Of a stretch of DNA of 64,000 nt, positions 2,696 to 35,629 are shown piece after piece. Source of the DNA: Candidatus Latescibacterota bacterium (GTDB taxonomy: Bacteria > Latescibacterota > UBA2968 > UBA8231); contig OY730476.1 of NCBI GenBank assembly GCA_963422735.1, positions 1,952,001-2,016,000 on the forward strand. The letters run 5' to 3'. Below the pieces are notes generated by a model, which worked only from the letters and a program-made list of their open reading frames with translations, did no database searches and was not told where the DNA came from. Position numbers and translations under genes: made by a program. Every line of letters begins with the position of its first letter. Position 1 is the stretch's first letter.

Positions 2696-2732
2696 AGTTC
2701 TTCCCCCTCTTGGAAGAGCCTAGAAACCTCAT

Positions 2733-3140: not shown

Positions 3141-3170
3141 CTATCTCATGCCTCCCTAAGAAGGCCGCCC

Positions 3171-3824: not shown

Positions 3825-3866
3825 TTTCTTTATCCCTCCTTAAGTTAGGACGCAAAGAAATCAAAG

Positions 3867-7112: not shown

Positions 7113-7170
7113 TTGTGCATCTCCTTGTCTAGGTTCCTAAGTTTGGAGTCCATCGGGGTCTTTTTGTTGT

Positions 7171-8106: not shown

Positions 8107-8141
8107 AATCCCAACTCCTCCTTGGTGGTCTCGCTTAAAGG

Positions 8142-9838: not shown

Positions 9839-9869
9839 CCGTTTTTTGATGTCTTTCAAATCGAGATGT

Positions 9870-9898
9870 ATGATAATCAATGGCCTAAGACGTGTCAA
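9870..9898 (-). promoter_or_regulatory. Sigma70-type promoter for the 9838->1334 operon
   Basis: Minus strand reads TTGACA-N17-TATCAT (-35 at 9893-9898, -10 at 9870-9875). Confidence 0.75.
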
Positions 9899-10248: not shown

Positions 10249-10394
10249 ATATTATATGAATAGCGAAATGTCGACCAAGATGCGCGATTAGCCCGGTCGG
10301 TGTGGACTGGGTTGGGGCGTTCAACTGCCGTCGGCGTCCCTGTTCTGCCCGTCGCAGGCAGCCAAGGGCTTACATTCTTGCGTGGAGGTGTTCG

Positions 10395-13145: not shown

Positions 13146-15242
13146 ATGGCACGCAGCATCCGCTTTTTTTTATGCGTGCTCTTACTAGCCGCCCTTGCAC
13201 TTCGGTTGGGCTATTTGTGGGAACACCGCGCCAGTCCCTTCTTCGATGCGCCCGTAGTTGACGCCCAGACCTTCTTCAAACAGGCACAGGCCCTTGCCAG
13301 CGGCCCGTTCTGGGGAGGGGACGAACCGTATTGGCAGCCCCCTCTCTATATCTACCTGCTAGCGTTCGTTTACTGGCTTCTGCCGGCCTCGTACTTCGTC
13401 GGCATCCGGCTCGTACACGTGGGCCTCGGCGTTCTTTCCTGCCTATTGGTATACGCGTTGGCCCGACACGCCTTTGGCGAGCAGGTCGGTCGCATTGCCG
13501 GCGTCATGGCGGCCTTGTGCGGCTCTTTGCTCTACTTTGAGGGCGAGCTACTGGCCGTACCGGTGGAAGTCTTCCTCAATCTCCTGCTCCTATACAGCCT
13601 GTTACTGGCGTGGAGACGCGATCGCGGGCGCAACTGGGTGTTGGCCGGCTTCATCGCGGGCCTTGCGGCCCTCACTCGCCCCAATATCTTGCTCTTTATC
13701 GCGGCCTTTTGCGCTTGGGCACTGTGGCACCGGCGCACATCTGCATACCGTTCCCTGTTCTTTTTTATCGTTCCCATAGCCTTGGTCATCCTGCCCGTCA
13801 CCTATCGCAACTGGACCATTGAGCCGGACCTCGTCTTCATCTCTTCCAATGCCGGCGTAAACTTCTACCTCGGCAACAACGCCGACTACGAGCGTACGGT
13901 CTCGCTGAGCCCAGGCATGCAGTGGGAGACAGTGATTGCCGAAGCGGCGAACTCAGGGCATGAAACCGCAGCCGCCCTATCTGCCTTTTTTTTTCGCAAA
14001 GCCCTCGATTACATAACCGCGCAGCCCCTCGACTATCTCGGCCTGCTCTGCAAGAAGGGATTCTACTTTTGGAGTGGCCCAGAGACCAAGCGCAACCAAG
14101 ACATATACTACGCCCGCCAACACTCGCGGATTTTGAGTCTCTTGCTCTGGGATTGGCACGTGTCGATTCCCTTCGGCCTGATCGGCCCGCTGAGTTTGCT
14201 CGGCTTAGGACTGAGCATGAGGGGTGAGTGGACGCCGCCGATTGCCTTGCTGCGACTCTACGCTCTCGTGTACACGGCCTCGGTCGTACTCTTCTTTCCG
14301 GCGGCCCGCTACCGTATGCCGGTCGTGCCGGTGCTGATAGCTTTTGCTGCTTTTGCCGCTTTTCAGCTCTATCTAGGCGTACGCCGCAGAGCCTATATCC
14401 GCACCACAGTGCTTGCCCTGCCTCTTGGGGGTCTATTGGTCTTGTGCAACCTCGCCGAGGCCGCGCCGACCGCAGAAGACGCCCAACTCTACTTCGACCT
14501 AGGCGAGGTGCATTTGCGTAAGCGAGACTACGCCCGGTCTGCACGTTACTCGCGCCAAGCACTGGAATTGAACCCGGAGTACAACTACGCCCGCCACAAT
14601 CTGGCCGTTGCGTACTTTCACCAAGAGCACTATGGGGAAAGCGAGCGAGAGGCCCTGCAGACCCTAGCGGAAAATCCCCGACGCGCCGACACTCGTGTAC
14701 TCCTAGGCCGGATTTATCTAGCGACTCATAAGCCGCAGCAGGCCGAAGCGCATCTGCGCCACGCTCTCGAACGATATCCAGAGTCCGGCATGGCCCACTA
14801 CTACTACGGCCGCCTGCTCTACCGCCAAGGACACTACGTTGCGGCCACAACCCACTTGCAGCATGCGCTTTCTTGGCAGCCACAGGACTTCTGGCTGCAC
14901 TACGAACTAGGAAGGGCCTTACAGCAGGCCGGGCAAGCCGAGGCTGCACTCGGCCTGTACCACCAAGCCCTCTCTCTGGAAAGGCGACCCGAGGCCCTAA
15001 ACGCCATCGGTGCCCTGCACCTGCTCGCTGGACGCACACAAGCGGCACGGACGCATTTTCTCCAAGCCCTAGCGCTAGCTCCAGACAACCCAGAAGTCCA
15101 CATCAACCTCGCGCTTATCGAACTCGAACATGGGGACCACGCCGCGGCCATTGATCGGTTGCGCCAAGTCCTTATGCGCGATCCTGATCCGCGTGCGCAG
15201 CGCTTGCTCGACGAGACCTATCGCCGCCTCGAATCGCCATAG
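13146..15242 (+). CDS. GT-C (ArnT/PMT-like) glycosyltransferase with C-terminal TPRs
   Basis: Multiple TM helices, VVDAQT...YWQPPLY, LAALTRPN and RYRMPVVP motifs, then ~250 aa of TPR repeats. Confidence 0.8.
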   Translation: MARSIRFFLCVLLLAALALRLGYLWEHRASPFFDAPVVDAQTFFKQAQALASGPFWGGDEPYWQPPLYIYLLAFVYWLLPASYFVGIRLVHVGLGVLSCLLVYALARHAFGEQVGRIAGVMAALCGSLLYFEGELLAVPVEVFLNLLLLYSLLLAWRRDRGRNWVLAGFIAGLAALTRPNILLFIAAFCAWALWHRRTSAYRSLFFFIVPIALVILPVTYRNWTIEPDLVFISSNAGVNFYLGNNADYERTVSLSPGMQWETVIAEAANSGHETAAALSAFFFRKALDYITAQPLDYLGLLCKKGFYFWSGPETKRNQDIYYARQHSRILSLLLWDWHVSIPFGLIGPLSLLGLGLSMRGEWTPPIALLRLYALVYTASVVLFFPAARYRMPVVPVLIAFAAFAAFQLYLGVRRRAYIRTTVLALPLGGLLVLCNLAEAAPTAEDAQLYFDLGEVHLRKRDYARSARYSRQALELNPEYNYARHNLAVAYFHQEHYGESEREALQTLAENPRRADTRVLLGRIYLATHKPQQAEAHLRHALERYPESGMAHYYYGRLLYRQGHYVAATTHLQHALSWQPQDFWLHYELGRALQQAGQAEAALGLYHQALSLERRPEALNAIGALHLLAGRTQAARTHFLQALALAPDNPEVHINLALIELEHGDHAAAIDRLRQVLMRDPDPRAQRLLDETYRRLESP

Positions 15243-15250
15243 GAGGTTCT

Positions 15251-16882
15251 TTGTCTGGCTACTTCCAAGCTCTCTTGTTCCTTGCTTGTGCGTTGCCCGT
15301 CTCTAGTGCTGGACCGATCTTTACCGATGTGACCCAAGCCGCTGGCATCTCCTTCATCAATGAATCTGGCGGGGCCGACAAGCAGTACATCATCGAAACC
15401 CAATCGGCTGGCTGCGGCTTTTGGGACTACGATAGCGACGGCCAGCTCGACATCTTTCTCACCAGCGGCGTCCGCTCCGACTCGACGACAGGCACCGCGC
15501 TCTATCGCGGGATAGGCCACGGTGCGTTTAGCGATGTGACCGCAGGCTCTGGCACGGAGCTAGGCGGCTGGAATATGGGCGTGGCCTTTGCCGACTACGA
15601 CAGCGACGGCGATACCGACCTCTACCTCACCCGTTGGGGCCGGGACGTGCTTTTGGCTAACGAAAGAGACGGGACCTTCAAAGACGCCACCTCGACCGCG
15701 GGCCTCGGCGCGGCAGGCTGGGGGATCGGCGCGGCCTTTGCCGACTACGACAACGACGGCGATACCGACCTCTATGTCGCCAACTACATAACTTATGAAC
15801 GCGGTGGCCCGCCCTTTTACAACCGTTGGTGTAAGCACAACGGCGTACCCGCCGCCTGTGGCCCAAGCGGAGCCCAAGCTCAACCGGATTTGCTCTATCG
15901 CAACGAAGGCAATGGCACCTTTACTGACGCTAGTCTACAAGCGGGAATTCGCGGCCCGAATTACTACGGCATGGGCGCAGCTTGGTCCGACTTGGATGGC
16001 GACGGAGACCTCGACCTCTACGTCGCCAACGACGGGCATCCCAACAGCCTCTATCGCAATGACGGGGGCCGCTTCGTCAACATCTCGCTGGCGACCGGTA
16101 CGGCGCATAGCGGCGACGGGCGTGCCCAAGCCGGCATGGGCGTCGCCTTGGCCGACTTTGACAACGACCTACAGGTGGATGTTTTCGTGACCAATTTCTC
16201 ACAGGACCACAATACCCTCTACAGCAACGAGGGCAATGGCTTCTTCGCCGACGTCAGCGGACGCGCTGGCCTAGCCGGCAGCAGCCGCCCCTTTATGGGC
16301 TGGGGCACCTTCTTCTTCGACTACGACCACGACGGCTGGCAGGACCTCTTCATCGCCAACGGCCACCTAATGCCAGCCATTGAACGCGCTGGCGGCGGTC
16401 TCCGCTACCGCCAACGCAACCAGCTCTACCGCAACTTAGGCAACGGGCGCTTTCGGGAAATCGCCAACGAGCCGGCTCTTGCCACCGAGCGAGTTAGTCG
16501 CGGCGCAGCCAGTGGCGATTACGACGACGACGGCGACCTCGACATCTTGGTCGCCAATCTCGACGACGTCCCCTCCCTCTTGCGCAACGACGTCGAGGAC
16601 AAGGGCCATTGGCTGCTGTTGACACTGCGCCGGGGACCTACCGAGGCCATCGGCACACACGTGCGGATCCGTGCTGGCGGCCTACATCAGATGCGCGAAG
16701 TGCAGACCGGCTCTAGCTTTCAAGCTCAGAGCGATACGCGCTTGCACTTCGGTTTGGGGCCAGCCACTGCGGCCGATATCGAAGTCACGTGGCCGGGCGG
16801 TGAGCGCCAAGTCTTCCGCGCCGTGCCTGCCAACCACCACTACGCCATTCACCAAGGCGTCAATCGCCTCATGCCGGAGTAG
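15251..16882 (+). CDS. CRTAC1/ASPIC-UnbV family FG-GAP repeat protein
   Basis: Repeated FADYDxDGDxDLY motifs and C-terminal AIG..V.......QMREV..GSSF.AQ....LHFGLG...WP.G; TTG start after AGGAGG. Confidence 0.9.
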   Translation: MSGYFQALLFLACALPVSSAGPIFTDVTQAAGISFINESGGADKQYIIETQSAGCGFWDYDSDGQLDIFLTSGVRSDSTTGTALYRGIGHGAFSDVTAGSGTELGGWNMGVAFADYDSDGDTDLYLTRWGRDVLLANERDGTFKDATSTAGLGAAGWGIGAAFADYDNDGDTDLYVANYITYERGGPPFYNRWCKHNGVPAACGPSGAQAQPDLLYRNEGNGTFTDASLQAGIRGPNYYGMGAAWSDLDGDGDLDLYVANDGHPNSLYRNDGGRFVNISLATGTAHSGDGRAQAGMGVALADFDNDLQVDVFVTNFSQDHNTLYSNEGNGFFADVSGRAGLAGSSRPFMGWGTFFFDYDHDGWQDLFIANGHLMPAIERAGGGLRYRQRNQLYRNLGNGRFREIANEPALATERVSRGAASGDYDDDGDLDILVANLDDVPSLLRNDVEDKGHWLLLTLRRGPTEAIGTHVRIRAGGLHQMREVQTGSSFQAQSDTRLHFGLGPATAADIEVTWPGGERQVFRAVPANHHYAIHQGVNRLMPE

Positions 16883-16891
16883 AATAGAACT

Positions 16892-18226
16892 ATGAGCCTT
16901 GCACTGCTTTTTTTGTTAATATGCACTGCCTGTGCCCGCGAAACACCCGATACAACGCAAGCTCCCACCCCGCCCGCCGACTCAGCGGATCAGACCTTTG
17001 CCGCCGGTCGCGCACTCCAAGTTCGTGGCCTCTTCACCCAAGCCGAGCAGGCCTATCGGCGAGCACTGCAACAATCCCCGGCCAACCCCCAATACCATTA
17101 CTATCTCGGCGTCACATTGCATGCCCAAAGTCGTTTTGCCGAGGCGCAGACCCAATTTGAAAAAGCACTCGAACTAAAACCCGACTACGCCGGCCCTCGC
17201 ATCGCCTTGGGCAAAATGCTCTATGATGTACACGGGAAGGTAGAGGAAGCTCGCCAGTTCCTCACTGAGGCGCTGGAACTGGCTCCCAGTGCTGTCGAAG
17301 CGCACTACATATTAGGCGTAATTCACCAGCGCGAAGGCCAGCTACAAGAGGCCCGCGAAATTTTTGCCGCCATCGCCGCTGCCGACTCCACCCACCTCCA
17401 AGCCCGGCTACAGCTAGGTCTAGTGGACCTAAAGCTAGGCAATTACCAAAAGGCCGAGAGCCAACTGCGCCAAGTCGCGCACCTTAGTCCCCACGAACCA
17501 GCCGCGTTTCTCGGAATCGGGCAGGCTTTGTTGCGTCTGGGCCGCACCGCAGAGGGGCAGCGCGCGCTCGAGCGAGCGCGCGTCTTGGACGAACAAAACG
17601 CCCAACTCAAGCCCCACCAAGACGCGCTGCGCCAGTACCCCGATCAACCTCAAGCCCACTCCAATCTCGCCGCCCTCTACAGCCGCTTTGGGCGTCTCAA
17701 ACTGGCCGTCGAACACTACCGGCAGTCCATTCTCATCGACTCGACCTATGGCTTGGGGTACCAAGGATTGGGCACTCTGCTTCAGCGCCGGGGCAAGGAC
17801 GATTTGGCGACTCGCTATTACCTCGAAGCACTGAGCCACGACTCGACCCTAGCCGAAAGCCACAACAATCTGGGCTTGATATTTCACAAGCAGGGCCAAC
17901 TAGAAAAGGCCCTCAGACGATACGAGCGGGCCATGCAGTTCGCCCCATCTACGGGTTTCTACTACTCCAACCTCGGCAATGCGCACCTCGAAATGGATCA
18001 ATTGGACCAAGCGCAGGCGGCTGTCGAGCGGGCCATCGAACTGGACGCGAAGCTCTATAGTGCCCACATACTGCTCGGCGATATTCACGCCCGCCGCGGC
18101 GAATTCGCACGGGCTATCGCGCTCTGGGAAGGCGTTCCGTCCAGTGGGGCGGCCGGTGAGACTTTACAAGCCAAAATCGCCAAGGCTCGACGGCATCTAT
18201 CCGCGCAAGAGCGCACACCGCGATGA
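16892..18226 (+). CDS. TPR-repeat lipoprotein
   Basis: Lipobox-like CTA|C and TPR repeats throughout. Confidence 0.85.
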   Translation: MSLALLFLLICTACARETPDTTQAPTPPADSADQTFAAGRALQVRGLFTQAEQAYRRALQQSPANPQYHYYLGVTLHAQSRFAEAQTQFEKALELKPDYAGPRIALGKMLYDVHGKVEEARQFLTEALELAPSAVEAHYILGVIHQREGQLQEAREIFAAIAAADSTHLQARLQLGLVDLKLGNYQKAESQLRQVAHLSPHEPAAFLGIGQALLRLGRTAEGQRALERARVLDEQNAQLKPHQDALRQYPDQPQAHSNLAALYSRFGRLKLAVEHYRQSILIDSTYGLGYQGLGTLLQRRGKDDLATRYYLEALSHDSTLAESHNNLGLIFHKQGQLEKALRRYERAMQFAPSTGFYYSNLGNAHLEMDQLDQAQAAVERAIELDAKLYSAHILLGDIHARRGEFARAIALWEGVPSSGAAGETLQAKIAKARRHLSAQERTPR

Positions 18227-19725
18227 GCTTGGCTGTCCCGCTCGCCGCGCTATGGGTATTCTGGGGTGGTTGCGGTGCAGGCTCTGGCCCGGAAGAAGCC
18301 GGCGATCGCTTGGTGCAGGCCGGGCGTTCCTTCGCTGAAGAACATTGCTACGCCGAGGCGCGCCGCGCCTTTGAAAACGCTCTAGCCCTAGACTCGCTCG
18401 ACGCCGCAGCGCACTGTGCATTGGGCGATCTCGACGCCCGGCTCGGGCACGTAGAGCAGGCTATCCAGTCCTACAAAGCCGCGATCGCGGCCGACTCCAC
18501 GTACCATCGTGCCCGACATAATCTAGCTGTTATAGAGGCCGACCGGGGCTACCTGCCCCTAGCCATCGAGCTGCTCGAACACACTCCCACTTATGTCCCT
18601 GCTCTCCGTACCCTGCCCCTTTTTCACGCCAAACAGGGACGCTACGATCTAGCCGAAAAGGGATTGCACACCGCCCTAGCGGCAGGCGGGGAAAACATTG
18701 ACGTGCGGCAACAACTCGGCCGGCTCTATCTGCGCCAAGGGCGCTACGACGAAGCCCGAGCCGCACTCGACCTAGCCCTTGCCCAAGACTCAACCCAAGC
18801 CGAAAGTCACCGTCTGCTGGGTTTGCTGCACCTATCCGAGCGGCGTTACTCGGAGGCGCTGGCGGCCTTCCGCCGCACGCTCGCGCTCGACCCACACCTG
18901 ATCGAGGCCCACTACAACCTTTCTTCGGCTCTTCTGGGCTTGGGACAGCCAACCCAAGCGCAGGCGGCGTTGGCGCGTTTTGAGACCCTCGCTGCTCACG
19001 CCGCCCAAGTCGCGCACTTGCGCCGCCAACTCGACGCCGACCCCAATGACCACGAGACTCGCTTGCAGCTAGCCCATCACTATCGGCAACTGGGCCGAGA
19101 CAATGACGCCCTCACCCACTATCGGGCTGCACTTCTGGCCGATCCGACCAACTTGGATGCCCTAATTCCGCTGAGCGGGTTCTTGTTGGCGCGAGGAAAA
19201 GACCAAGAAGCGCTCGAACTATGCCGCCGAGGCATATCCCGGCACCCAACGGATGTGCGCACCAGCAAGCTCCACTTCACTCGTGGCTATGTCTATGTGC
19301 GACGCCACCAGTATCAAGAAGCCCGCACGGCCTTCGAGCGCGTCCTAGCACTGGATTCGTCCTCGGCCACGGCCTATAACAACCTCGGCCATGTCCAGCT
19401 AAGTTTAGGCGAAGAAGCGGCGGCCCAACGGGCGCTGGAGTCGGCCATTGCCGCCGATTCAACCCTAGCCGATGCCCACTACAATCTCGGCAGCCTGTTC
19501 TTGCAAAAGGGACAGCTAGACCGGGCCCAACGGGCTTATCAAGCGGCGCTTGCGGCCGATTCGACCTTTGCGCGGACCTATTACGCTCTGGCAACCGTGT
19601 ACCAAGCCCAAGGCGCGATCTCGGAAGCACGCCGTTGCTACCAAACCTTTATCGACAAGTGGCAAGGCAACCCAGACTTCTTGCGTCAAGCCCGCGAGCG
19701 GCTCGCCCAACTGTCGAGTCCTTGA
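18223..19725 (+). CDS. TPR-repeat protein, probable lipoprotein
   Basis: WGG|C near the N-terminus, TPR repeats with recurring ADST; ATGA overlap with the upstream gene. Confidence 0.85.
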   Translation: MSLAVPLAALWVFWGGCGAGSGPEEAGDRLVQAGRSFAEEHCYAEARRAFENALALDSLDAAAHCALGDLDARLGHVEQAIQSYKAAIAADSTYHRARHNLAVIEADRGYLPLAIELLEHTPTYVPALRTLPLFHAKQGRYDLAEKGLHTALAAGGENIDVRQQLGRLYLRQGRYDEARAALDLALAQDSTQAESHRLLGLLHLSERRYSEALAAFRRTLALDPHLIEAHYNLSSALLGLGQPTQAQAALARFETLAAHAAQVAHLRRQLDADPNDHETRLQLAHHYRQLGRDNDALTHYRAALLADPTNLDALIPLSGFLLARGKDQEALELCRRGISRHPTDVRTSKLHFTRGYVYVRRHQYQEARTAFERVLALDSSSATAYNNLGHVQLSLGEEAAAQRALESAIAADSTLADAHYNLGSLFLQKGQLDRAQRAYQAALAADSTFARTYYALATVYQAQGAISEARRCYQTFIDKWQGNPDFLRQARERLAQLSSP

Positions 19726-19726
19726 T

Positions 19727-21448
19727 ATGTCCATCCTAGCGTTCCTTGTCTGTTGCCTCTGTTTGGCCTGTAGCTCTACGGAAGAGATCGCGCCACCCGC
19801 ACCGCTGCCGCACACCGCGCCCGCAGCCCCGTCTCTCCACTTTGTCGAAGTAGCTTCTACCGTCGGTCTGACATGGCAGCACGAAAACGGCCGCAGCCCC
19901 CAGCGGCACTTCCCCGAGACCATGGGTGGTGGAGGTGCCTTCTTCGACTACGACGGCGATGGCGATTTGGATATTTACGCCGTAAACGGCGCTTTTATCT
20001 CCGCCGATTCGCAGGATGCGGCCCCTGCCAATAGGCTCTTTCGCAACGATGGCCAGCACTTTGTCTCGGTCGAGGCCGGAGTCGCCCACCGAGGCGTTGG
20101 CATGGGGGTTGCCGCGTCCGACTACGACAGTGATGGCGACCTCGACCTCTATTTGACCAACTTTGGCCCCAACGCGCTCTTTCGCAACGACGACGGATAC
20201 TTTGCCGAAATCGGACGGCAGACCGGCGTTGCCGATGCGCGCTGGGGCACGAGCTGCACCTTTGCCGATTACGACCGCGACGGCGATCTCGACCTTTATG
20301 TCGCTAACTACGTGGCCTACGATCCAGCCGCGGCCCGCCTCGATCAAGTACCCTATATGGCTGGCTACGAAAGCTATGGCGGTCAGGCACCTGTCGGCTA
20401 TCCGCATCCAGACAACTTCGAGGGCCAGGCCGATCTGCTCTACCGCAACGATGGCGGGGGGCACTTTGTTGATGTCTCGGCAGGAGCGGGTATCGCTGAT
20501 GCGAGCGGCAAGGGGCTAGGGGTGGCTTTTGGCGACTACGACCGCGACGGCTGGCCCGACATCTACGTGGCCAATGACGCAGTGCGCAACTTCCTCTACC
20601 ACAACAGCCACGATGGGACCTTTACCGAAAGAGCGGGACTGATGGGGGTGGCTTATGGCCAAGATGGGCAGATGGAAGCGGGCATGGGAGTAGATTGGGG
20701 CGACTACAACGGCGACGGCGTACTTGATTTAACGGTGACCAACTTTCAGGCCGAGCCTAACGCACTCTATCGGGGCGAAGGCGGCTTCTTCTCGGTTGCA
20801 ACCTTTGCCGCCGGAATGGGTCTTCCGTCGCTGCCCTTGCTCGGGTTTGGCACCCAGTTTTTCGACCCCGACCTCGATGGCGATCTCGACCTGTTTGCCG
20901 CTAACGGCCACGTCCTCGACAACGTCCGCGACATCGACCAATCCACTAGCTATGGGCAGCGCAATTTGCTCTTCCGCAACGACGGCGGCCGCTTCGCCGA
21001 GGTTTCCGCGATAGCTGGCCCCGGCTTCTCCCTAGAGCGCGTCAGCCGCGGCAGTGCCACCGGCGACTACGACGACGACGGCGATCCCGATCTACTAGTT
21101 TTCAATTCAGGTCAACCACTCAGCTTGCTGCGCAACGACCAAGGCGACGCCAACCACTGGATGACCCTCCGACTCGTGGGAGCTAACGGTAACCCTAACG
21201 GCATCGGCACTTGGCTGACGGCGACCAGCGGCGGCCTAGTCCAGAATAGGGAACTGCGCGGCAGCCGCTCGTACCTATCGCAGAGTCAACTCCGCATCTG
21301 TTTGGGACTAGGGAAACGGCCGCAACTCGACGCGCTAACAGTGCGCTGGCCTTCGGGCCGCGTGGATCGATTCGGTCCCTTTGCAGCCAACCAAGCCATC
21401 GTGCTCGTCGAAGGCGAGGGCGTCAGCGCGGCTTCTGACCCGCCCTAA
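19727..21448 (+). CDS. CRTAC1/ASPIC-UnbV family FG-GAP repeat lipoprotein
   Basis: Start moved to ATG 19727 (MSILAFLVCCLCLA|C); ETMGGGGAFFDYDGDGDLD, FG-GAP repeats and an UnbV-like C-terminus. Confidence 0.9.
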   Translation: MSILAFLVCCLCLACSSTEEIAPPAPLPHTAPAAPSLHFVEVASTVGLTWQHENGRSPQRHFPETMGGGGAFFDYDGDGDLDIYAVNGAFISADSQDAAPANRLFRNDGQHFVSVEAGVAHRGVGMGVAASDYDSDGDLDLYLTNFGPNALFRNDDGYFAEIGRQTGVADARWGTSCTFADYDRDGDLDLYVANYVAYDPAAARLDQVPYMAGYESYGGQAPVGYPHPDNFEGQADLLYRNDGGGHFVDVSAGAGIADASGKGLGVAFGDYDRDGWPDIYVANDAVRNFLYHNSHDGTFTERAGLMGVAYGQDGQMEAGMGVDWGDYNGDGVLDLTVTNFQAEPNALYRGEGGFFSVATFAAGMGLPSLPLLGFGTQFFDPDLDGDLDLFAANGHVLDNVRDIDQSTSYGQRNLLFRNDGGRFAEVSAIAGPGFSLERVSRGSATGDYDDDGDPDLLVFNSGQPLSLLRNDQGDANHWMTLRLVGANGNPNGIGTWLTATSGGLVQNRELRGSRSYLSQSQLRICLGLGKRPQLDALTVRWPSGRVDRFGPFAANQAIVLVEGEGVSAASDPP

Positions 21449-23441
21449 TCTGCGCGACGAGTGCGCGGCCGAACGCCTCTTGCTGCTGCTCGGCAGCTAC
21501 CTGCACGACGTACGGCTCGGCGTCGGCCAAGCGACCCGCAGTCATCAGTTCGGTGACCAACAGCTCTAGCAAGTCCGTTGTGAACATCTTGCGGATATTC
21601 GCGTCTTGCGCTGCGCTTTCTAGATCTGTCAACGCCTTGACATGCTCTCCGAGCAAATGGTAGGCATAGCCGCGGATAAAGTCCTGTAACCCCGGGGAAA
21701 AGTCCGGGGCTTCGCTCAAGAAGCGCAAGCGGTCTAGCAGGGCGGAGAGCGTAGCACGCCCATCGGCCCCAATAAGATCTCCCGCGAGTTGTCCACAACG
21801 CATCTGGCGCAGCGTACTCCACAAATCGCCCCATATTGTATAAGGCTCCTCCAAACGAGCCGCGCGATAATAGGCCCGCGCACGCTCGTACTCCCGAGCG
21901 GCGTAGCACGCCTCAGCCACGTTCAGCGCCAATAGCTCCGGCCCCTCTCCCGTTCGCCAGTGCTCGACTCCGCTCCGCTCTCCGGCACTCAATTCGTCCC
22001 ACAGGGCCGCGGCTTGCTGGCGCAAGGTCTGCACTCGACGCTCGTTGCCCTCATCCAAAGGAGGCGCGGCCAAGAGTACGGCCATGGCCCGCAGCACGGC
22101 CAGCCGCTCGACGGGCAAGTCGCCTAGCCTACGGCGGTATTCGTCGGCTGCCGCCAACCGATCCTCAGCGTCGGGCGCGACCTTCCAAGGAGCCGGTGCT
22201 CCTTCCAGCGCAGCGACAATGGCCCGGGCCAAGAGCACTTGGCCAGCCGCCGCTGGATGCAAATGATCGGCCATCAACTCCCAACCTACCCCTGCCTCCG
22301 GGCTATGGGCGCGGAAGCGCACCTCGACATCGGCGAGGAGCACCCCTTCTTCGGCCGCGACTCGGCGGACGATCTCGTTTAGGGTTGCTGTCGCCCGCCA
22401 AGGCCGGGGATCCAACTCGCGAGCCTGCACATAAGCCGCCCGCGCCTTAGCCCCACGAGCCAACTGCTCTAAGTGATAACCGCGCAAGAAGTGCAAATAG
22501 GCGTCGTCCGCATAGAGTGCTTCGGCCTGCTCCAAGGATGCCAGCGCGGCCGACGGGGCTTGCTCCCTATGGCCCTGAGCTAAAAAATTCACATAGCGCA
22601 CGCGCTCCCCATCCGGCAAAGGCGGCTCAATGTGCGCTGGCGCGAAACCGCGCTCGTTGCTGGTCACCGTACAGAGCACCAAGGGTATGCGCTGCGCTCG
22701 GCAAAAGGCCGCCACGTCGCGGAGATTGGCTTCTAAGTTGGCCGCTGCCTGCGCCCGCCGCGGATCGGACGCCGGGATCGCGCCTGCCTTAGACATCACC
22801 TCGATTAAGGGACCTTCCGCCCTCTCTTTTCCCAATGGCCCGATCAGCTTGCCGACCAAGGGCCTCAGCCGCCACTGCACCAGCGCGTAGTGGACCCGCT
22901 TCATCCACACCGCTTGCCCTCCTTGGGCCAATGAGGCCGCCCCATAAACCCCGTATAGCTCGTTGTGTCCGGTATAGACTACGATCAAGTCCGCCCCGAG
23001 TGCGGCTTTGCCATCTTCCACGGCGCGGGCCACGGCAAAGCTCGAAGCCGCGGTGATTCCGGCGTTAAAGACTTCGATCTGACGCTCTGGAAAGAGGTCG
23101 CCGAGCATTTCTTGGAGATAAGACGGGGCCGCTAAACGCTTGGGGTGGGGGTAGCCCTGTACGGTCGAACCCCCGGCAAAAAGCACGCGCAATGCGCCAG
23201 CGGGCGCAGGTTCGATATAGGGCCTCGGGGTCATGCGGATGCCGCGCCGGATAGGCTCGGCCATGTCGGCGAAGAAGCGACGGGCGTAATCCGGGTTGAC
23301 CGCGTGGAGCACCCGGCCCTCGACGTGCGCTAGTTGGATGGCAAACGCCGGCGGATCCAACGCCGGGATCAGCCGCAACCCACCTTCGATGAGCGCGACC
23401 AAGACCAAGCCGAGCAGCAACGCCGCGAGCCGGCCGCGCAT
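21423..23441 (-). CDS. SGNH/GDSL hydrolase-like protein with TPRs
   Basis: N-terminal TM ending EGGLR; block motifs GGSTVQG, EVFNAG, YTGHNE and DHLHP; TPR-like helices. Confidence 0.8.
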   Translation of the reverse strand: MRGRLAALLLGLVLVALIEGGLRLIPALDPPAFAIQLAHVEGRVLHAVNPDYARRFFADMAEPIRRGIRMTPRPYIEPAPAGALRVLFAGGSTVQGYPHPKRLAAPSYLQEMLGDLFPERQIEVFNAGITAASSFAVARAVEDGKAALGADLIVVYTGHNELYGVYGAASLAQGGQAVWMKRVHYALVQWRLRPLVGKLIGPLGKERAEGPLIEVMSKAGAIPASDPRRAQAAANLEANLRDVAAFCRAQRIPLVLCTVTSNERGFAPAHIEPPLPDGERVRYVNFLAQGHREQAPSAALASLEQAEALYADDAYLHFLRGYHLEQLARGAKARAAYVQARELDPRPWRATATLNEIVRRVAAEEGVLLADVEVRFRAHSPEAGVGWELMADHLHPAAAGQVLLARAIVAALEGAPAPWKVAPDAEDRLAAADEYRRRLGDLPVERLAVLRAMAVLLAAPPLDEGNERRVQTLRQQAAALWDELSAGERSGVEHWRTGEGPELLALNVAEACYAAREYERARAYYRAARLEEPYTIWGDLWSTLRQMRCGQLAGDLIGADGRATLSALLDRLRFLSEAPDFSPGLQDFIRGYAYHLLGEHVKALTDLESAAQDANIRKMFTTDLLELLVTELMTAGRLADAEPYVVQVAAEQQQEAFGRALVAQIRAGQKPR

Positions 23442-23444
23442 TTT

Positions 23445-25109
23445 TTAAAAGGCGTCAGCGTAGCGAGCGAGGGCGTCTTGGCTGATATGCACCTCGCCTG
23501 CATACGCTTGGCGCAGCGAGTCGAGAAACGCATTGAAGAGTACACCTTCTCGGCGCTTGCGGATATCCACGCGAATGGGCCGCTGTACCTGCTTAAAGGG
23601 CAGCAACGCCATCTCGTAAGGCTGGTTGAGGCGAAAGACGCTGTACTTCTCTTGGACTTCCATTGGACCTTGCAGTACCCCAACGTCTTTGGAATTGCTG
23701 TCGCCAAAAAAGGTGCGGTACGGCGACTGATAGAGCGACTCGATGGTGACCCGACCGCTGTCGGCGAATGTGTGACCGCCCACTGGCTTCATACTGGACC
23801 GCACCGAATGGCGAACAGCCAAAGCCTCTAGTCGTTCCCCAGCACGCACCTGAGCGAGGATCGCCTCGGCCTCCGCGCGCGTATCGACCAGAACCTCGGT
23901 CATCTCGATGATACCGGGCAAGGACTTGTAGGTATCGAGGTATTTTTCGTAATAGGCTCTAACTTCGGCATCCGTCACCTCGACCCTACCCTCGACCTCG
24001 TCTAGGCGCAATTGGGACGCGAGAAGCTTCTGGTGCTTTTTCTCTTTCCACTCCACTATGTCGGCCCGCTGATGCAGCCCTTGAGCGCGGGCCTCGAGGG
24101 ACAGCAGCGAATCGGGAAGAATCCACAACTCAAGCACTTGGAAGACCGCTGTGCTGTCGGGCGGCAACGTACCTTTTTCCACATTGAGCAGCCCCTGCAC
24201 GAAGTCGCCCACTTTGATTGCGCCCCCTGTGTATTCGATCAGCGGTGCCTGCGCTTGCGCTTGGCTCAGTCCACCGCGGTGCAATCCATTGAGCACGGCG
24301 TGGATGCGATTTCGGTGATAGCGCAGGTCGTGCGCCTTCTTGAGCGAATCAATGACCGCTTCGCGCCGACTCACCCACTTGCGCCGGCTTAGCTGCTTGG
24401 CGATATCGTCGCGCAACTGCTCGAAGGGAATGCGCCGCTTTTTGAGCACCTTGACCACCTCATAGCCATCGATGGTGCGGATCGGCTCGCTGATCTGGCC
24501 TTCTTCCAAGTGGAAGGTGCCATCGCGCAGATTGGACACGGCACCACCTTGGTCGAAGAAGGCACCGAGATTGCCGCCTTTGTCCGCGTCGTCAGCTAGG
24601 GAACGCTCGCGGGCCAACTCGGAGAAACTAGCCCCTGCATCCAGCAGGCGGATGATTTCGCGGGCGTCTTCTTCGCGAGCGGAGAGGATGTGCGCCGGCC
24701 AAATTTCCCAACCCAGCGACTGCTCCTCATAGGCCGCACGAAGTTCCTCTTCGGTAATTGTGAACTGGGCATCAACTATTTCGCGAGACAACTCCTCAGC
24801 TAAGCGCTTATTGACCATCTTGGAAAGCTTGTGCTTCAGGTCGGGCAGCCGATCCAGTCTCCGCTTCCTAGCCTCGCGCAGCACGAGATCCTTGTCCACC
24901 AAGCTCTGCAAATGTACGCGATGGGCAGCCACGCCCTCTTTCTTTGAGCGCAGATAGTCGGGCAACTCCCGCTCGTAGCGGTCGAGGTCTAGGGCAGTAA
25001 TCGCCTCCCCGGCGACCGTGGCCAAGACAGCGGCTAAATCGGCGGTTTTGCTCTCTGGGCCGCAACCTGCAAGCACCAAGAGGGCAACTAAAAAATGTCT
25101 CCACGACAT
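23445..25109 (-). CDS. SurA/PrsA-like PpiC peptidyl-prolyl isomerase lipoprotein (two rotamase-like domains)
   Basis: Probable start MSWRHF...LAG|C; HIL...GASFSELARERS.....GGNLG...GQISEPIRTIDGY.VVKV, plus a second degenerate domain. Confidence 0.85.
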   Translation of the reverse strand: MSWRHFLVALLVLAGCGPESKTADLAAVLATVAGEAITALDLDRYERELPDYLRSKKEGVAAHRVHLQSLVDKDLVLREARKRRLDRLPDLKHKLSKMVNKRLAEELSREIVDAQFTITEEELRAAYEEQSLGWEIWPAHILSAREEDAREIIRLLDAGASFSELARERSLADDADKGGNLGAFFDQGGAVSNLRDGTFHLEEGQISEPIRTIDGYEVVKVLKKRRIPFEQLRDDIAKQLSRRKWVSRREAVIDSLKKAHDLRYHRNRIHAVLNGLHRGGLSQAQAQAPLIEYTGGAIKVGDFVQGLLNVEKGTLPPDSTAVFQVLELWILPDSLLSLEARAQGLHQRADIVEWKEKKHQKLLASQLRLDEVEGRVEVTDAEVRAYYEKYLDTYKSLPGIIEMTEVLVDTRAEAEAILAQVRAGERLEALAVRHSVRSSMKPVGGHTFADSGRVTIESLYQSPYRTFFGDSNSKDVGVLQGPMEVQEKYSVFRLNQPYEMALLPFKQVQRPIRVDIRKRREGVLFNAFLDSLRQAYAGEVHISQDALARYADAF

Positions 25110-25196
25110 ACGTTTCTCACCTGTGTACAAAATCTGCGCGGTACCGCTCTCATAGCGGCACCGCGCATCTGAGTGATATTCGCCAATGGCACCGCG

Positions 25197-25955
25197 CTAC
25201 TTGTTGGTCGCCACCTTGCTCCCGTCTGGATAGACGCGGCCGATCTCCCGCTCAAAGTGCATTTCGACGTCCACATCCTCAATCGGATCCCCCTTGAAGT
25301 CGAAGCGCACCACCACATCGGGAATATGGACGGTCAACCCGTCGACATCCGGTGCCAGTGGCTTGAAGACGAGATACCCCTCGTTCTGTTGGGCGCTGAA
25401 CACCTGCTCATCGGGAAACATCGTGGTCCGCAAGATGCCGGTACGCTCCTGCCAGATGTAGCGAGCGTTGCCGAGCATCCCAGGCTCGTTGCCGCCGGTG
25501 CCACCGCCGATATAACTGCGGTAATATCTCGAGAGCTGTTCGTGGCTCAGCGCGTAGTACTTGCGCCCGTTAGAGGTGGTCATATAGACCTTTTGGGGGT
25601 CGAGATAGACCTTGGGGTATTCGTAATTAGAAAGATACATGCGAAAGACTGTGAAGCGGTGCGGGGTATCCCCAGTGCGAAAGTACGTCGAGTTGCCAAA
25701 CGTGTAGGGGTTGCGCGAGTCGGCCCCCTCGTTGGAGTACGCGCTGAACTGGCGGTTCAACTCCTCGTCGGTCATCGGCCGCAGGCTGATTTCAAGACGC
25801 GCTTGTATATAGGACACGGTGCCATCGTCGGCCACCGTCTTATTAGCCCCTTGCTCAATCTCGTTCAGCGGCTTGAGATCCTCTGCATAGTAGCGATAGG
25901 AGCAGCCCGGAAAAATCAGCCCAACCAGAAGCAACGGTGTGAAACATTTCAGCAT
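25197..25955 (-). CDS. Lipoprotein of unknown function, paralog B
   Basis: Start ATG 25955 after AGGAGG; FPG|C lipobox-like; clear paralog of 8142..8888. Confidence 0.85.
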   Translation of the reverse strand: MLKCFTPLLLVGLIFPGCSYRYYAEDLKPLNEIEQGANKTVADDGTVSYIQARLEISLRPMTDEELNRQFSAYSNEGADSRNPYTFGNSTYFRTGDTPHRFTVFRMYLSNYEYPKVYLDPQKVYMTTSNGRKYYALSHEQLSRYYRSYIGGGTGGNEPGMLGNARYIWQERTGILRTTMFPDEQVFSAQQNEGYLVFKPLAPDVDGLTVHIPDVVVRFDFKGDPIEDVDVEMHFEREIGRVYPDGSKVATNK

Positions 25956-25965
25956 GGGGAACCTC

Positions 25966-28716
25966 CTACTCAAGACCGGCGAACACGGTGACGAATATGG
26001 CCGTTTCAGTGCGCGCCTTTTCGGCCGAGGCGCGATCGATCCGCGATACGCGGAACCCAGTCTGGGTCCACAGATTGTAGCCTAGGTATTCGGCGTTGTT
26101 GGTAAACTGCAAGGCATAGACCATCTCGTTGCGATCCGAGCGCAGCAAATGGGTTTCCAACTCCTCGCGGAACTGCTCGACGAGTAAGTACTCTAGGCCG
26201 GTCTGTAATTCTGTGCGCGACAGAATCGGTACGCGCAGTACCAAAGACCAGAGCTCGCGCAACTCCGTAGTCGCCATCCGCTCTTGGGTGTCCTCGCGGC
26301 GCGAGGGCCGCTGGTGCTGGAACTCGCTCTTCCAGCGCGGCTGGAACTTGAGGACCCCGAGGTCGAAAGTGTAATCAACCTTATTGAGGACGCCGAAGAA
26401 GGAAGCCGTCTCGCGGATATCTTGCTCCTCAATCGGCCGTGCGGCGTAATTGGACTGTTTGAAAACCTCCCACTTGAAGCGGTTCTTGATGTGGATGCGG
26501 TCGCTTTGGTATTGATAGCCCAAGTACAGGGTATTGGCCCAACCATCGCGTAGGGGCAGGGGGTCGGTATAGGGTACTTCGTCGCCGCGCGATCCCTCGC
26601 GCAAGACCCACTCGATCACGTCGTCGCGGACATCGTCTTGGACCTTCCGGTAGTTGTTGTACACCTGCACACGCCCCTTGCTGGCGTAGTCTTTGTCAAA
26701 GGTCAGCAAGGCGTAATTGGTGACGTTCTCGCGGGCGTCGGCTAGCTGGCGCTCGTCGAGGCGACCGACGGTCAGCCGCGCCTCTGGGCCCAAGTGGGAA
26801 CCAGCGTAAATATTGTACCCGCGCCGATCCCGCTTGTAGAGGTAGTCGGGCAGAATGTCGTTTTCAAAACGGTCAACGATGCCGTTATTGTTCATATCGA
26901 CTCCGAAGAGGAATTCGGGCCGATCCGAAGCATAGCGGAGAAAAGGCTCCTCGTAATCAGGCACTTTATTCTCGCGCCACTCGTTGTCATTTTGGTTGAA
27001 GTCGTTGATGAAGTCGTTGTTCTCGTCAAAACCAGGGAAAACCCGGAGGTCCTGTGAGAAGTTGGCACGCAACCAGTCGGGGTTGCGGTCCTGATCGTCG
27101 TTGTCATCGACGAATTCGTAAACGAAACGTCTGTCGTCGTCGTAGTTGATATCGGCCGCGTCGTTCAGGGTGCCGGCTAAAAAGGTGCTGGTGCTGTAGC
27201 TAGGATCAACGTTATATACCTCGCCGAAGCCAAAGTAGGGATAAGCGCGTTTATACACGTTGACAAACCAAGCATCGGCCGAGGTGCTGTGCGCCTTGTG
27301 CTGGGTCACGTCAATTTCCGACCGCCGCGGATAGCGAAAGTGCTGGCGGTTGCGGTCGTATTCCCCCGAGAAGTAAAACCCGCTGACATCCATAACATCG
27401 AGCGTAAAACCGAAGATCTCATTGGCTACCGGCAACCCGTATTTGACGCGCACAAAGCCCTGATTCGAGCCATCCTGCACGTTGCCGTCGGCGCGCACTG
27501 TGCGATCGGGAATGCCCTCAGAGAGCAAGACCGGCTGACCGTTGGCGTTGAGTTGGCGGCTGGAGGTAACGTCGATCCGGTAGTCGTTGGCCAAAAGCAA
27601 CAGGAACTCAATGCTCTTGATCTGCTCGGGCTGAGGGCCGAAGGAGTTGCGGTACTGCGGACCTTCAAGGTCGTAAACTAGCACGATGACCTCGTTGCCA
27701 TCGGCCGAAAGGAATCCTTCGCGGCGGAAGCCCCCCTGTACTGCCGGGCTGAAGTCGAGGATGTTGTTATTGCCGATGCGGCGGCGATTGCTGATGCGCT
27801 CGCCGTCAATGGTAGTAATGATCATCTCCTCCTGAAAGAAGGCCGTGCCCGCCTCACCGTCCTCGGGCGAATCGTCGCTCAACCGCACCTCAATGCGCGT
27901 GACGTCGGCGTTGTTCTGGCCCTCGGTGAGCGTACCCTTGAAGGGGTTGCCCTGAAATGCTTGCCCTTTGGTCGAGGAGTTGAAAGCATTGACGTAAGTC
28001 GCGCCAAACTTGACAAAGTCGCCGACCTGCATGATGCCGCGGCCGCCGATCAGGTTGGTGTCGTTCGAGCGGAAACGACCGGTGCTAGCCGTCTCTAAAG
28101 TTTCGACTTGCCCAGGTGAACTGGGACGCGAAACGAGAAGTGTCGCCTCGTATTTGTCCGTGGCCAAGTCGAACTGAATACCGGCGAATGTCGGTTTGGA
28201 AAAGGTCATCGGCGTCAGCGTCGTGCGGATGCGATCGCTGATGGTCAGGGCATAGGCGTATTGGCCTTTCTGATCCGAGGCGATGACCAAGCTCGCAAAC
28301 CAGCTACTGAATCGGCCGGTTTTTAGTAGGCTGCTGCCCGATGTCTGCGGTGCTGCAATGCTCCAGTCGTAAATGAGTTCACCGCGGGTGATGTAATTCC
28401 CGTAGAGGTCGTAGAAATACTGGCCTTCCTGGTTGGTGTTCACAAAGCGCTGATAATGTCGGCGGGCATAATTGGTATAGTCCTGTTGCCGCCATTGGTA
28501 TTCATTAAAAAGTTCTTGGGGCACGTACCACTTCTTCACCGCTGGATCCAGTGCGTCAAAAAGCACCCCCGACCCAGTGGGATCGTAGAAAACCTCCCCA
28601 CCGCGGCGCATACCCAGACGCGAACCGAAGTCCTCCTGTGCTGGGAGATACTCGACCACCACTCCCAGCATCAGGACCGCCACCGCACCGGTGCGGAAAC
28701 TCCTAACTGTGTTCAC
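25966..28716 (-). CDS. 916-aa exported protein, probable large outer-membrane beta-barrel of unknown family
   Basis: GTG start with GGAGG; signal peptide; aromatic-rich alternating strands in the C-terminal third, ending TAIFVTVFAGLE; internal D/N-rich loops (DDNDDQD, DENNDFIND, DMNNNG). Confidence 0.65.
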   Translation of the reverse strand: MNTVRSFRTGAVAVLMLGVVVEYLPAQEDFGSRLGMRRGGEVFYDPTGSGVLFDALDPAVKKWYVPQELFNEYQWRQQDYTNYARRHYQRFVNTNQEGQYFYDLYGNYITRGELIYDWSIAAPQTSGSSLLKTGRFSSWFASLVIASDQKGQYAYALTISDRIRTTLTPMTFSKPTFAGIQFDLATDKYEATLLVSRPSSPGQVETLETASTGRFRSNDTNLIGGRGIMQVGDFVKFGATYVNAFNSSTKGQAFQGNPFKGTLTEGQNNADVTRIEVRLSDDSPEDGEAGTAFFQEEMIITTIDGERISNRRRIGNNNILDFSPAVQGGFRREGFLSADGNEVIVLVYDLEGPQYRNSFGPQPEQIKSIEFLLLLANDYRIDVTSSRQLNANGQPVLLSEGIPDRTVRADGNVQDGSNQGFVRVKYGLPVANEIFGFTLDVMDVSGFYFSGEYDRNRQHFRYPRRSEIDVTQHKAHSTSADAWFVNVYKRAYPYFGFGEVYNVDPSYSTSTFLAGTLNDAADINYDDDRRFVYEFVDDNDDQDRNPDWLRANFSQDLRVFPGFDENNDFINDFNQNDNEWRENKVPDYEEPFLRYASDRPEFLFGVDMNNNGIVDRFENDILPDYLYKRDRRGYNIYAGSHLGPEARLTVGRLDERQLADARENVTNYALLTFDKDYASKGRVQVYNNYRKVQDDVRDDVIEWVLREGSRGDEVPYTDPLPLRDGWANTLYLGYQYQSDRIHIKNRFKWEVFKQSNYAARPIEEQDIRETASFFGVLNKVDYTFDLGVLKFQPRWKSEFQHQRPSRREDTQERMATTELRELWSLVLRVPILSRTELQTGLEYLLVEQFREELETHLLRSDRNEMVYALQFTNNAEYLGYNLWTQTGFRVSRIDRASAEKARTETAIFVTVFAGLE

Positions 28717-34723: not shown

Positions 34724-35629
34724 TTACTCGCTCAGCGAAGCCTTGATGCGGCCCCAAGAATCTTCTTCGACCGCTGTTTCATCAATGTCACCACCTAGGC
34801 CGACCAAGCGAGCATCGACAAAGCGTTCGGCAAAACGCCACGTTGCAGCCTGACCAGATATGGTGTGGAAGGCACGATCCTGGCCCGGAGCCTGATCCGT
34901 ATCCGGCGTCGAAATCTGGTACCCAATGATATTACCTTCGACGAGAGGCGTCGCGATGCTGTCGTCGGGACTGTTCCAGATCAGATCGTCGAAAGGCGTA
35001 CAGAAAAACTCAATGATGCTAACCGTTGGCCCGTCGCCAATAGAGACGCCACCACCATCGGCATAGGGTAGATCGTTGACCCACTCAGAACCTGCACCCA
35101 AATAGAAAACGTGACGCCCTGAAGGATCATCCGCGACGGCGATGTACTGCTGCGCCGTGCGATTGTTGTTCAGTTTCTTCTCTTCTTCAGTCCACTCCTC
35201 GTTGGCCGAACCAGTGTAGTCGCCTCCAGTGTGGTCACCGTCGAGCATAACTTCGATGGCCTCATAATTCCAAGGACTACTCCCGTCGTACTCCCTGCCG
35301 AAGTACACGTTGTCTATACGCTCCATGGCGAACCAGATCGTGCCTCCATTGCCGTTCCAGCCTGTCCAGATACGGTAGTCAAGGTCCGCCGGATCGTACT
35401 GGGCACCGTCGCCCACTGTGGGATCCTGATAGAGATCAGTAGGGAGAAACTGGGGGTCACCCATTACATCTTCCCAGTCCTCGACGGTGCCATCATTAAA
35501 ATCAAGGTCAGCCAGATCCGCATCGGCAATCTCAAAGAGCAGGTAAACCTTTTCACCAATATGTGCATTAGCACCGCTTGTCAGGCCCAATATCAGACCC
35601 ATAGCGACAAGGCCATATAGACGTTGCAT
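34724..35629 (-). CDS. Secreted acidic CBM9/DOMON-like protein with C-terminal WGxIK tail
   Basis: Signal peptide ANA|H; DGTVEDW, TGWN, EAIEVMLDGDHTGG and FAERF motifs shared with 8885..9838; tail TAVEEDSWGRIKASLSE. Confidence 0.78.
   Translation of the reverse strand: MQRLYGLVAMGLILGLTSGANAHIGEKVYLLFEIADADLADLDFNDGTVEDWEDVMGDPQFLPTDLYQDPTVGDGAQYDPADLDYRIWTGWNGNGGTIWFAMERIDNVYFGREYDGSSPWNYEAIEVMLDGDHTGGDYTGSANEEWTEEEKKLNNNRTAQQYIAVADDPSGRHVFYLGAGSEWVNDLPYADGGGVSIGDGPTVSIIEFFCTPFDDLIWNSPDDSIATPLVEGNIIGYQISTPDTDQAPGQDRAFHTISGQAATWRFAERFVDARLVGLGGDIDETAVEEDSWGRIKASLSE

Follow-up and report, generated by a model that had tools for sequence, protein, structure and literature searches.

What does a bacterium do with a 916-amino-acid outer-membrane barrel encoded between the genes for two secreted proteins and a lipoprotein? 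The question is raised by a gene, here called B, at positions 25966..28716 on the (-) strand of the window, by which we mean the whole 64,000-nucleotide stretch that was analysed (Candidatus Latescibacterota bacterium, assembly GCA_963422735.1, contig OY730476.1, positions 1,952,001 to 2,016,000). An original prediction, made from the sequence, had described the product as a probable outer-membrane barrel of no known family and had offered it as a translocon or surface dock for the neighbouring proteins, or as an alternative importer. We propose that a surface-display cassette, present in many copies, has B as its membrane-embedded core. With somewhat less than even confidence, we further read it as the outer-membrane partner that carries or anchors those proteins of the cassette that are exported by the T9SS (type IX secretion system), a role like that of PorP/SprF in a protein of another family.

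A large barrel of an unnamed family

The translation of B (GTG start) begins with a signal peptide (aa 1-26; 28639..28716, (-)) that ends in ...LPAQ at its putative cleavage site and is helical at residues 4-23 in the structural model. Ala-Gln also closes the signal peptide of the neighbouring protein C2 (31940-32017, (-)), and across the aligned barrels the consensus there is 'AQ'; these ends recall a habit of Bacteroidota, in which an N-terminal glutamine follows signal cleavage. The remainder was predicted by AlphaFold2 to form a barrel with two large inserts (mean pLDDT 77.8, pTM 0.77), using an alignment of 51 sequences with 25-89% identity to the query. About 26 long strands were assigned by DSSP, or 24 if two 5-residue strands at 700-716 are taken as loop. 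The last strand is made by the C-terminal residues, TAIFVTVFAGLE, the final one of which is not Phe.

No Pfam or NCBIfam family matched B at E <= 0.1, Plug, POTRA and usher included. In a search for relatives 7999 candidate proteins were scored, of which 1169 had E <= 0.001, and an exhaustive search gave 743 cluster representatives at 50% identity, 201 of them at E <= 1e-30; given relatives in these numbers, the gene is real. Among the 120 relatives listed, all are 'hypothetical' or unnamed and none carries a precomputed Pfam domain. A scan of a genome collection confirmed at least 626 loci of the family, the best 80 of which lie in metagenome-assembled genomes that bear the labels Latescibacterota, Gemmatimonadota and a small number of others; many of these genomes have more than one. 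Literature searches on Latescibacter secretion and outer-membrane barrels gave no description of the barrel family or its cassette. The family is thus large, unnamed and undescribed.

Structural comparisons of the model led to generic large-barrel matches only. The best hit in VIA-align was Deinococcus SlpA (7zgx_A; Z 14.8, root-mean-square deviation (rmsd) 8.0, 427 residues aligned); other large barrels in the list were MtrB (6r2q_B; Z 12.6, rmsd 7.3, 400 aligned), LptD (5iva_A; Z 9.3, rmsd 8.3, 339 aligned) and SprA (6h3i_A; Z 9.0, rmsd 8.2, 397 aligned). Small porins scored Z 11-13 in the same list, equal to or above SprA and LptD. Foldseek, which had been suggested as a check against known barrels, returned LptD (E 6e-7, TM 0.15-0.17), FimD (3rfz_B; E 1.9e-6, TM 0.22) and TonB-dependent receptors, all at TM <= 0.26. 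These fold matches share 5-10% sequence identity with B, and comparison of the alignment profile with solved structures found no solved relative, the hits being noise (E 0.098 and 0.45).

When the strands are numbered from the C-terminal end, alternate connections between them are just 2-4 residues long (877-880, 832-835, 786-789, 737-741, 677-681, 643-646, 491-494, 444-447 and 231-235) and the remaining ones are long. The C-terminus of known outer-membrane barrels is periplasmic. If that of B is too, strand parity would place both inserts of the model, aa 249-419 and aa 504-630, on the cell-surface side. The first (27460..27972, (-)) is a beta-rich domain between two barrel strands, on the side of the long loops, with DSSP strands at 274-385 modelled mostly at pLDDT 84-94 and a conserved SDDSPEDG at aa 280-287.

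Within the barrel family the best-conserved part is the second insert (26827..27207, (-)), an acidic, Asp/Asn-rich loop whose conservation averages 0.56 and peaks at 0.74 over aa 601-620. It holds the stretches DDNDDQD (aa 537-543), DENNDFIND (aa 564-572) and DMNNNG (aa 607-612), and six of its aspartates (D538, D540, D564, D572, D607 and D615) do not vary across the 51 aligned sequences. At aa 607-618 (26863..26898, (-)), DMNNNGIVDRFE conforms to a strict pattern for EF loops, D-x-[DN]-x-[DNS]-G-x-[ILV]-[DE]-x-x-[ED], which was found in 31 of the 51 sequences aligned and, within the genome, in 12 of the 34 paralogues, versus 4 of 193 other open reading frames (ORFs) of at least 800 aa. A full EF-hand has, around a 12-residue loop with ligands at 1, 3, 5, 9 and 12 and Gly at 6, two flanking helices; the Pfam scan of B gave no EF-hand family match, and the model has only short helical turns beside the loop. 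Judged by its residues, the acidic loop is probably calcium-binding. Cysteine is absent from B, and in 25 of the 34 paralogues it is lacking from the whole chain beyond the signal peptide.

What the original prediction had read from the letters of B held up. The signal peptide, the terminal strand without a final Phe and the three D/N-rich loops all recur in the translation, and the stretch at aa 607-618 fits the loop pattern of an EF-hand. The inserted domain expected near aa 260-430 appears at aa 249-419 of the model. A barrel of no known family agrees with the fold prediction, which returned some 24-26 strands instead of a soluble or non-barrel protein, and with the empty family scans, in which the missing TonB plug, POTRA domain or other known signature stayed missing.

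The cassette around B

B lies in a row of seven genes on the same (-) strand, in the order U, C1, C2, B, L, S and a GDSL/TPR gene. Both upstream neighbours of B carry a C-terminal domain of the CHU_C/FlgD_ig type, as had been predicted. C1 (32053..34536, 827 aa) scored 32.8 bits with CHU_C and 27.8 bits with FlgD_ig, above the cut-off of 27 for each. C2 (28763..32017, 1084 aa), with the tail FTPNGDGVND..., came just below the cut-off with CHU_C (25.4 bits), and its tail matches the FlgD Ig-like domain 3osv_A when its profile is compared with solved structures (E 4.9e-5). Both tails are type-B-like, and both remain under the cut-off of 35 with TIGR04131 (22.6 for C1 and 16.3 for C2). C2 also has a DxDxDG acidic repeat at aa 658-685. 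A description of the bodies of the C proteins as 'lectin-like' was left unsupported, the profile of C2 having matched solved structures at the tail alone.

Directly downstream of B is L (25197..25955), a lipoprotein of 252 aa with a lipobox. From its ATG at 25955 it starts 10 bases after the stop of B, which confirms the tight coupling noted earlier; an alternative TTG at 25973 (258 aa) would give an 8-base overlap. L was modelled (pLDDT 83.9) as a beta-sandwich with two inserted helices, for which the fold matches were middling: YcdA (4r4g_A; Z 8.2, rmsd 4.2, 125 aligned), YjhA (3cfu_B; Z 7.5, rmsd 4.7, 128 aligned) and MPT63 (1lmi; Foldseek E 8.6e-4). Neither L nor its relatives matched a Pfam or NCBIfam family, SusD-type families included. 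An identity for L was also sought in the ESM Atlas, which offered unnamed clusters and DUF4352 at 0.79, below the level of a lead.

Next comes S (23445..25130), a PrsA/SurA-like parvulin peptidyl-prolyl isomerase with the lipobox LAGC, matched by Rotamase_2, Rotamase and Rotamase_3 and by PrsA-type NCBIfam models below their cut-offs. Three bases after it follows a 672-aa GDSL-like hydrolase with TPR (Lipase_GDSL_2; 21423..23441), which has just 3 copies in the genome.

At the other end of the row, U (34724..35629, 301 aa) encodes a secreted protein ending in ...TAVEEDSWGRIKASLSE. By sequence it is CBM9-like: its paralogue at 8885-9898 matches CBM9_1 at 26.2 bits against a cut-off of 23.4, and its neighbours in the ESM Atlas are CBM9_1 clusters, a lead only. 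A C-terminal tag, TAVExxSWGxIK plus 2-8 residues, is shared by 38 genes, 25 of them among the 32 members of the U family and 13 others, mostly 120-345 aa; this tag may be an unrecognised sorting or docking signal. A reading of U as resembling a lytic polysaccharide monooxygenase with an N-terminal histidine was dropped, the A-x-A-H pattern being present in only 11 of the 32 members.

In the metatranscriptomic library X20, contigs about 90-95% alike represent S, L and the 3'-terminal part of B, and one of them, of 543 bases, spans the B/L junction; contigs from RNA libraries are no proof of transcription or of a single transcript, and X6 counts as RNA by guess only. Library X22 gave no match and X23 two short pieces.

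Repetition of the cassette and its tie to one tail class

The 4.95-Mb single-contig genome encodes 34 full-length barrel paralogues, plus fragments, at 23-25 loci depending on how neighbours are merged. A cassette typically comprises a CBM9-like U, 2-3 tailed proteins of 600-1100 aa, 1-3 barrels and the foldase S, often with L as well. Sequence within 10 kb of a barrel gene makes up 11.6% of the genome, and 24 of the 32 copies of U, 15 of the 17 copies of L and 20 of the 33 copies of S fall there. In other genomes, 21 of 26 loci (L001-L026) run from U through an ORF of ~830 aa and one of ~1100 aa to B, L and S; the remaining five comprise three that are truncated where a contig or locus stops and two with a different content. 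The GDSL/TPR gene is retained downstream of S at most orthologous loci: at 18 of the 21 in full order an ORF of 566-761 aa follows S on the same strand, the exceptions being L015 and L019, where the following ORF has the opposite orientation, and L012, which was left out.

We then asked which tailed proteins lie near barrels. A tail profile found 122 ORFs of at least 400 aa in the genome. Those with a type-B-like tail (xTPNGDGxND) number 81, and 65 lie within 10 kb of a barrel gene, versus 4 of the 38 with a type-A-like tail (YPNPFNP); 1 of 3 unclassified ORFs does so as well. The odds ratio between tail class and barrel proximity is 34.5 by Fisher's test, the p-value of which overstates the case because paralogues are not independent. 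These counts tie the cassette to a single class of tail. With 34 barrel, about 81 tailed-protein and 33 foldase genes, it is probably a dominant part of the cell surface.

Core components of the T9SS are encoded in the same genome. PorU is full-length and over its cut-off (632 bits), a PorV-like gene adjoins it (152 bits, under the cut-off of 250), and SprA scores 84 bits in a 2140-aa frame. PorP_SprF (PF11751) has no match over its cut-off of 22.3 in the genome, the best reaching 18.3 bits. GldM (TIGR03517) likewise had no match, but control genomes were equally silent, so this result is uninformative.

The tie is also phyletic. Among 121 genomes of the phylum that are at least 80% complete, 69 have the barrel: the present genome and every one of the 68 sampled from ten families. 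It is missing from all 52 genomes of four other families. All 68 barrel-holding genomes have CHU_C, mostly with 4 to at least 40 matches and a best E of 1e-6 to 1e-15 (G003 has a single match), while 38 of the 52 genomes of the barrel-less families have just 1-5 weak matches (E 1e-4 to 1.6e-6). Strong CHU_C matches and the barrel thus co-occur in the same families. PorP_SprF shows the opposite pattern, with weak matches of 20-28 bits in 2 of the 69 barrel holders versus 25 of the 52 barrel-less genomes. These contrasts rest on a handful of lineages. SprA_N was found in 118 of the 121 genomes and, among the 69 barrel holders, is lacking only from G015 and G038.

B as a proposed surface anchor for T9SS cargo

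According to passages in two papers on Bacteroidota (PMC9143113, PMC12618676), T9SS-secreted proteins with type-B tails are carried or anchored by PorP/SprF-like barrels, and they bind and need the cognate barrel that is encoded beside them. By analogy, C1 and C2 would be exported by Sec and would fold in the periplasm with the help of the cassette's own foldase S. The T9SS (SprA, PorU and the PorV-like protein) would next read the type-B-like C-terminal domain and pass them across the outer membrane, where B would take them over and hold them at the surface. The candidate docking face of B would be formed by the beta-rich domain and the conserved acidic, probably calcium-binding loop, both predicted on the outer side by strand parity. 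L is probably a stoichiometric partner of the barrel.

Of the roles first suggested for B, a surface dock is thus the one that we favour, on the genomic evidence of the tails (65 of 81 type-B-like versus 4 of 38 type-A-like) and of the families in which barrel and strong CHU_C matches coincide. A translocon is less likely, as the genome has its own SprA, full PorU and PorV-like gene.

Several points weigh against an anchoring role. That B would bind the cassette proteins is proposed from their genomic association, and duplication of the cassette as a unit would yield much of the neighbourhood statistics without any binding. Sixteen of the 81 ORFs with type-B-like tails lie far from any barrel, and about 12 PorV-like small barrels in the genome could be the real shuttles. 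Nor do the tails sort by cassette: among 63 proteins, just 4 have a mate from their own cassette as the closest match by tail (2.1 expected by chance), and after correction for similarity of the protein bodies the excess tail similarity is small (residual +6.7 score units, permutation p 0.005). Tails track the protein subfamily instead of the cassette, and the tail alone is therefore unlikely to be a cassette-specific address. The complementarity of PorP/SprF and the barrel is drawn from few lineages, two genomes holding both. Of the features of sequence, size, cysteine content and gene position that mark PorP/SprF, finally, B shares gene position only. Cassette-wise homogenisation of the tails had also been considered and is essentially absent. 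Complex prediction of B (aa 50-916) with the C-terminal 110 aa of C2 scored 0.00 in two runs without controls, which says nothing either way.

Variant cassettes and flanking genes

The window holds a second, barrel-less cassette at 1334-9898 (-). It consists of a U paralogue (8885-9898), an L paralogue (8142-8888), a 311-aa PorV-like small barrel (7171-8106) of the family of the PorU-adjacent gene, a 1081-aa TPR/YfiO-like protein (3867-7112), ExbB (3171-3824) and a DUF4159 protein (1334-2695). Beside it lies a divergent gene for a 915-aa tailed protein (10302-13049, (+)).

At two other loci of the genome, L109 and L110 (G000:C1:2322312-2339439 and 2435073-2450614), three diverged tandem barrels are followed by DUF5683, a small fn3-like ORF and DUF4159. 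In L109 a ~1100-aa TPR protein additionally separates the barrels from DUF5683, and the locus is followed by an L paralogue. These triple-barrel loci look like a distinct cassette subtype. The small genes in them had been taken for ExbB/ExbD and proved to be DUF5683, the weak fn3-like ORF and DUF4159.

A census of the flanks drew on 121 representatives, which stand for 206 non-core genes lying inside 23 cassettes or up to 6 kb away. No glycoside hydrolase, polysaccharide lyase or carbohydrate esterase family was found in the census at E <= 1e-6, and its other genes resemble an ordinary genomic neighbourhood. A further 41 neighbours are TPR or FG-GAP/UnbV_ASPIC genes and 12 are DUF6785/6784 genes. 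In the window, at 13146-21448 (+) next to the cassette, FG-GAP/UnbV_ASPIC proteins alternate with TPR proteins, one of which carries a fused PMT_2 glycosyltransferase-like domain.

Alternative explanations

Nutrient uptake is a serious alternative, although we consider it doubtful. B would be the conduit of a capture-and-import module, as SusC is with SusD; L would serve as its lid or plug, U and the tailed proteins as surface binders and the acidic loop as a constriction or gate. Families that are expanded to tens of members beside diversified binding proteins are typical of uptake, as in SusC/SusD and the TonB-dependent receptors, and the barrels have expanded on this scale in such company. 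L starts 10 bases after B, as susD does after susC, and U is CBM9-like. Among the flanking genes are several for ABC solute-binding proteins and permeases; two barrel loci have ExbB-like genes nearby, at distances of 1.5 and 3.2 kb, and DUF4159 follows the barrels at the two triple-barrel loci. Furthermore, a ~650-aa DUF6785+DUF6784 protein, which we take to be a membrane protein, has 32 copies in the genome (e.g. G000:C1:3868922-3870862, L093), a number close to those of the barrels, U and S. It is moderately enriched near barrels (10 of the 32 within 10 kb, versus 11.6% expected), one copy being 4 bases away.

All of this has to be set against the absence of Plug, TonB-dependent barrel and SusD-type families from B and L, and against the census of flanks, which is empty of carbohydrate-active enzyme families. 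The genome already has 16 loci for ordinary Plug-bearing TonB-dependent receptors. There are 17 genes of the L family for 34 barrels, and a plug-less barrel of 24-26 strands would need closing. One of the 16 receptor loci, with CarboxypepD_reg, Plug and barrel domains, lies in the window at 55547-58420 (-).

Anchoring and uptake could be combined. The cassette would then be an undescribed modular machine and the main surface system of Latescibacterota, in which binders delivered by the T9SS sit on a calcium-stabilised barrel that also passes their catch; we think this unlikely, though worth stating. Such a capture device would be a functional counterpart of SusC/SusD built from unrelated parts, and if the barrel is a channel it would represent a new class of large outer-membrane transporter.

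Improbable, in our view, is a self-contained exporter in which B itself translocates or assembles the cassette proteins independently of the T9SS, in the manner of chaperone-usher systems and with S as the chaperone. One chaperone per operon is typical of those systems, and the cassettes do tend to carry their own foldase (20 of 33 copies near a barrel). B is close to ushers in size and strand number and FimD is among its Foldseek matches, and U, lacking a T9SS tail, has its own tag in common with 13 other small secreted proteins. The C proteins, however, have tails of the T9SS type in a genome that encodes SprA, PorU and a PorV-like protein, and SprA is present in 67 of the 69 barrel holders (118 of all 121 genomes). 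B matches no usher family, and strand parity puts its insert on the outer side, whereas in ushers the plug is located in a turn facing the periplasm.

Least probable of all is an abundant structural scaffold or tether like Deinococcus SlpA, with merely co-regulated neighbours: SlpA is the best structural match and acidic calcium-type loops could bridge to lipopolysaccharide (LPS) or a surface layer, but that match is generic for large barrels (small porins reach Z 11-13), the family scan and model revealed no SLH or coiled-coil part in B, and 34 diverged paralogues in conserved cassettes would be unexpected for a bulk structural protein.

Comparison with known systems

No component of the barrel family has a name, a Pfam model or a solved relative, and Latescibacterota are uncultured. 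Whether anchor or channel, the family is a source of clear-cut targets for structural work and for understanding how these bacteria live. Its place among known systems can be judged from what it shares with four of them.

Chaperone-usher systems (FimD/PapC with FimC/PapD) likewise combine a large barrel that has an inserted beta domain with one periplasmic folding helper per operon. Here the helper is a parvulin-type isomerase and not PapD-like, B has no usher match, and the substrates carry T9SS tails.

LptD-LptE, MtrB-MtrA/C and Deinococcus SlpA, very large barrels that surround or bind another protein, resemble B in strand number and are its best fold matches, and the genes of LptD and MtrB adjoin a lipoprotein gene, as B does. 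The resemblance stays at TM <= 0.26 and identities of 5-10%, with no family match. L was not listed with LptE-like folds, and the cassette includes neither cytochromes nor LPS-transport genes.

SusC/SusD pairs, and other TonB-dependent receptors that work with surface lipoproteins, share a large barrel directly followed by a lipoprotein gene, strong expansion and carbohydrate-binding-like partners. B differs in having no Plug (PF07715), no TonB-dependent barrel (PF00593) and no recognisable TonB box; the scan that found neither domain in B finds both in the receptor at 55547-58420. L is a small beta-sandwich in place of the helical, TPR-like SusD, and carbohydrate-active enzymes are lacking from cassettes and flanks.

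PorP/SprF (SprF-SprB, PorP-PG1035) has in common with the present cassette a barrel encoded beside proteins with CHU_C or type-B-like tails, many cognate-looking pairs per genome, and T9SS core genes. PorP/SprF proteins are small barrels of roughly 300-400 aa (the PF11751 model has 273 positions), whereas B has 916 aa and about 24-26 strands, matches neither PF11751 nor the NCBIfam T9SS PorP model, and bears two large inserts that include the EF-type acidic loop. SprF is described in a passage of PMC12635249 as using twin cysteines in its C-terminal tail, where B has no cysteine at all. Beyond barrel and cargo, the present cassette encodes a lipoprotein, a protein resembling CBM9 and a foldase of its own. 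If B does anchor T9SS cargo, the logic of cargo plus cognate barrel exists outside Bacteroidota as well. We favour the view that B works like PorP/SprF because the same genetic logic recurs here with an unrelated and much larger barrel.

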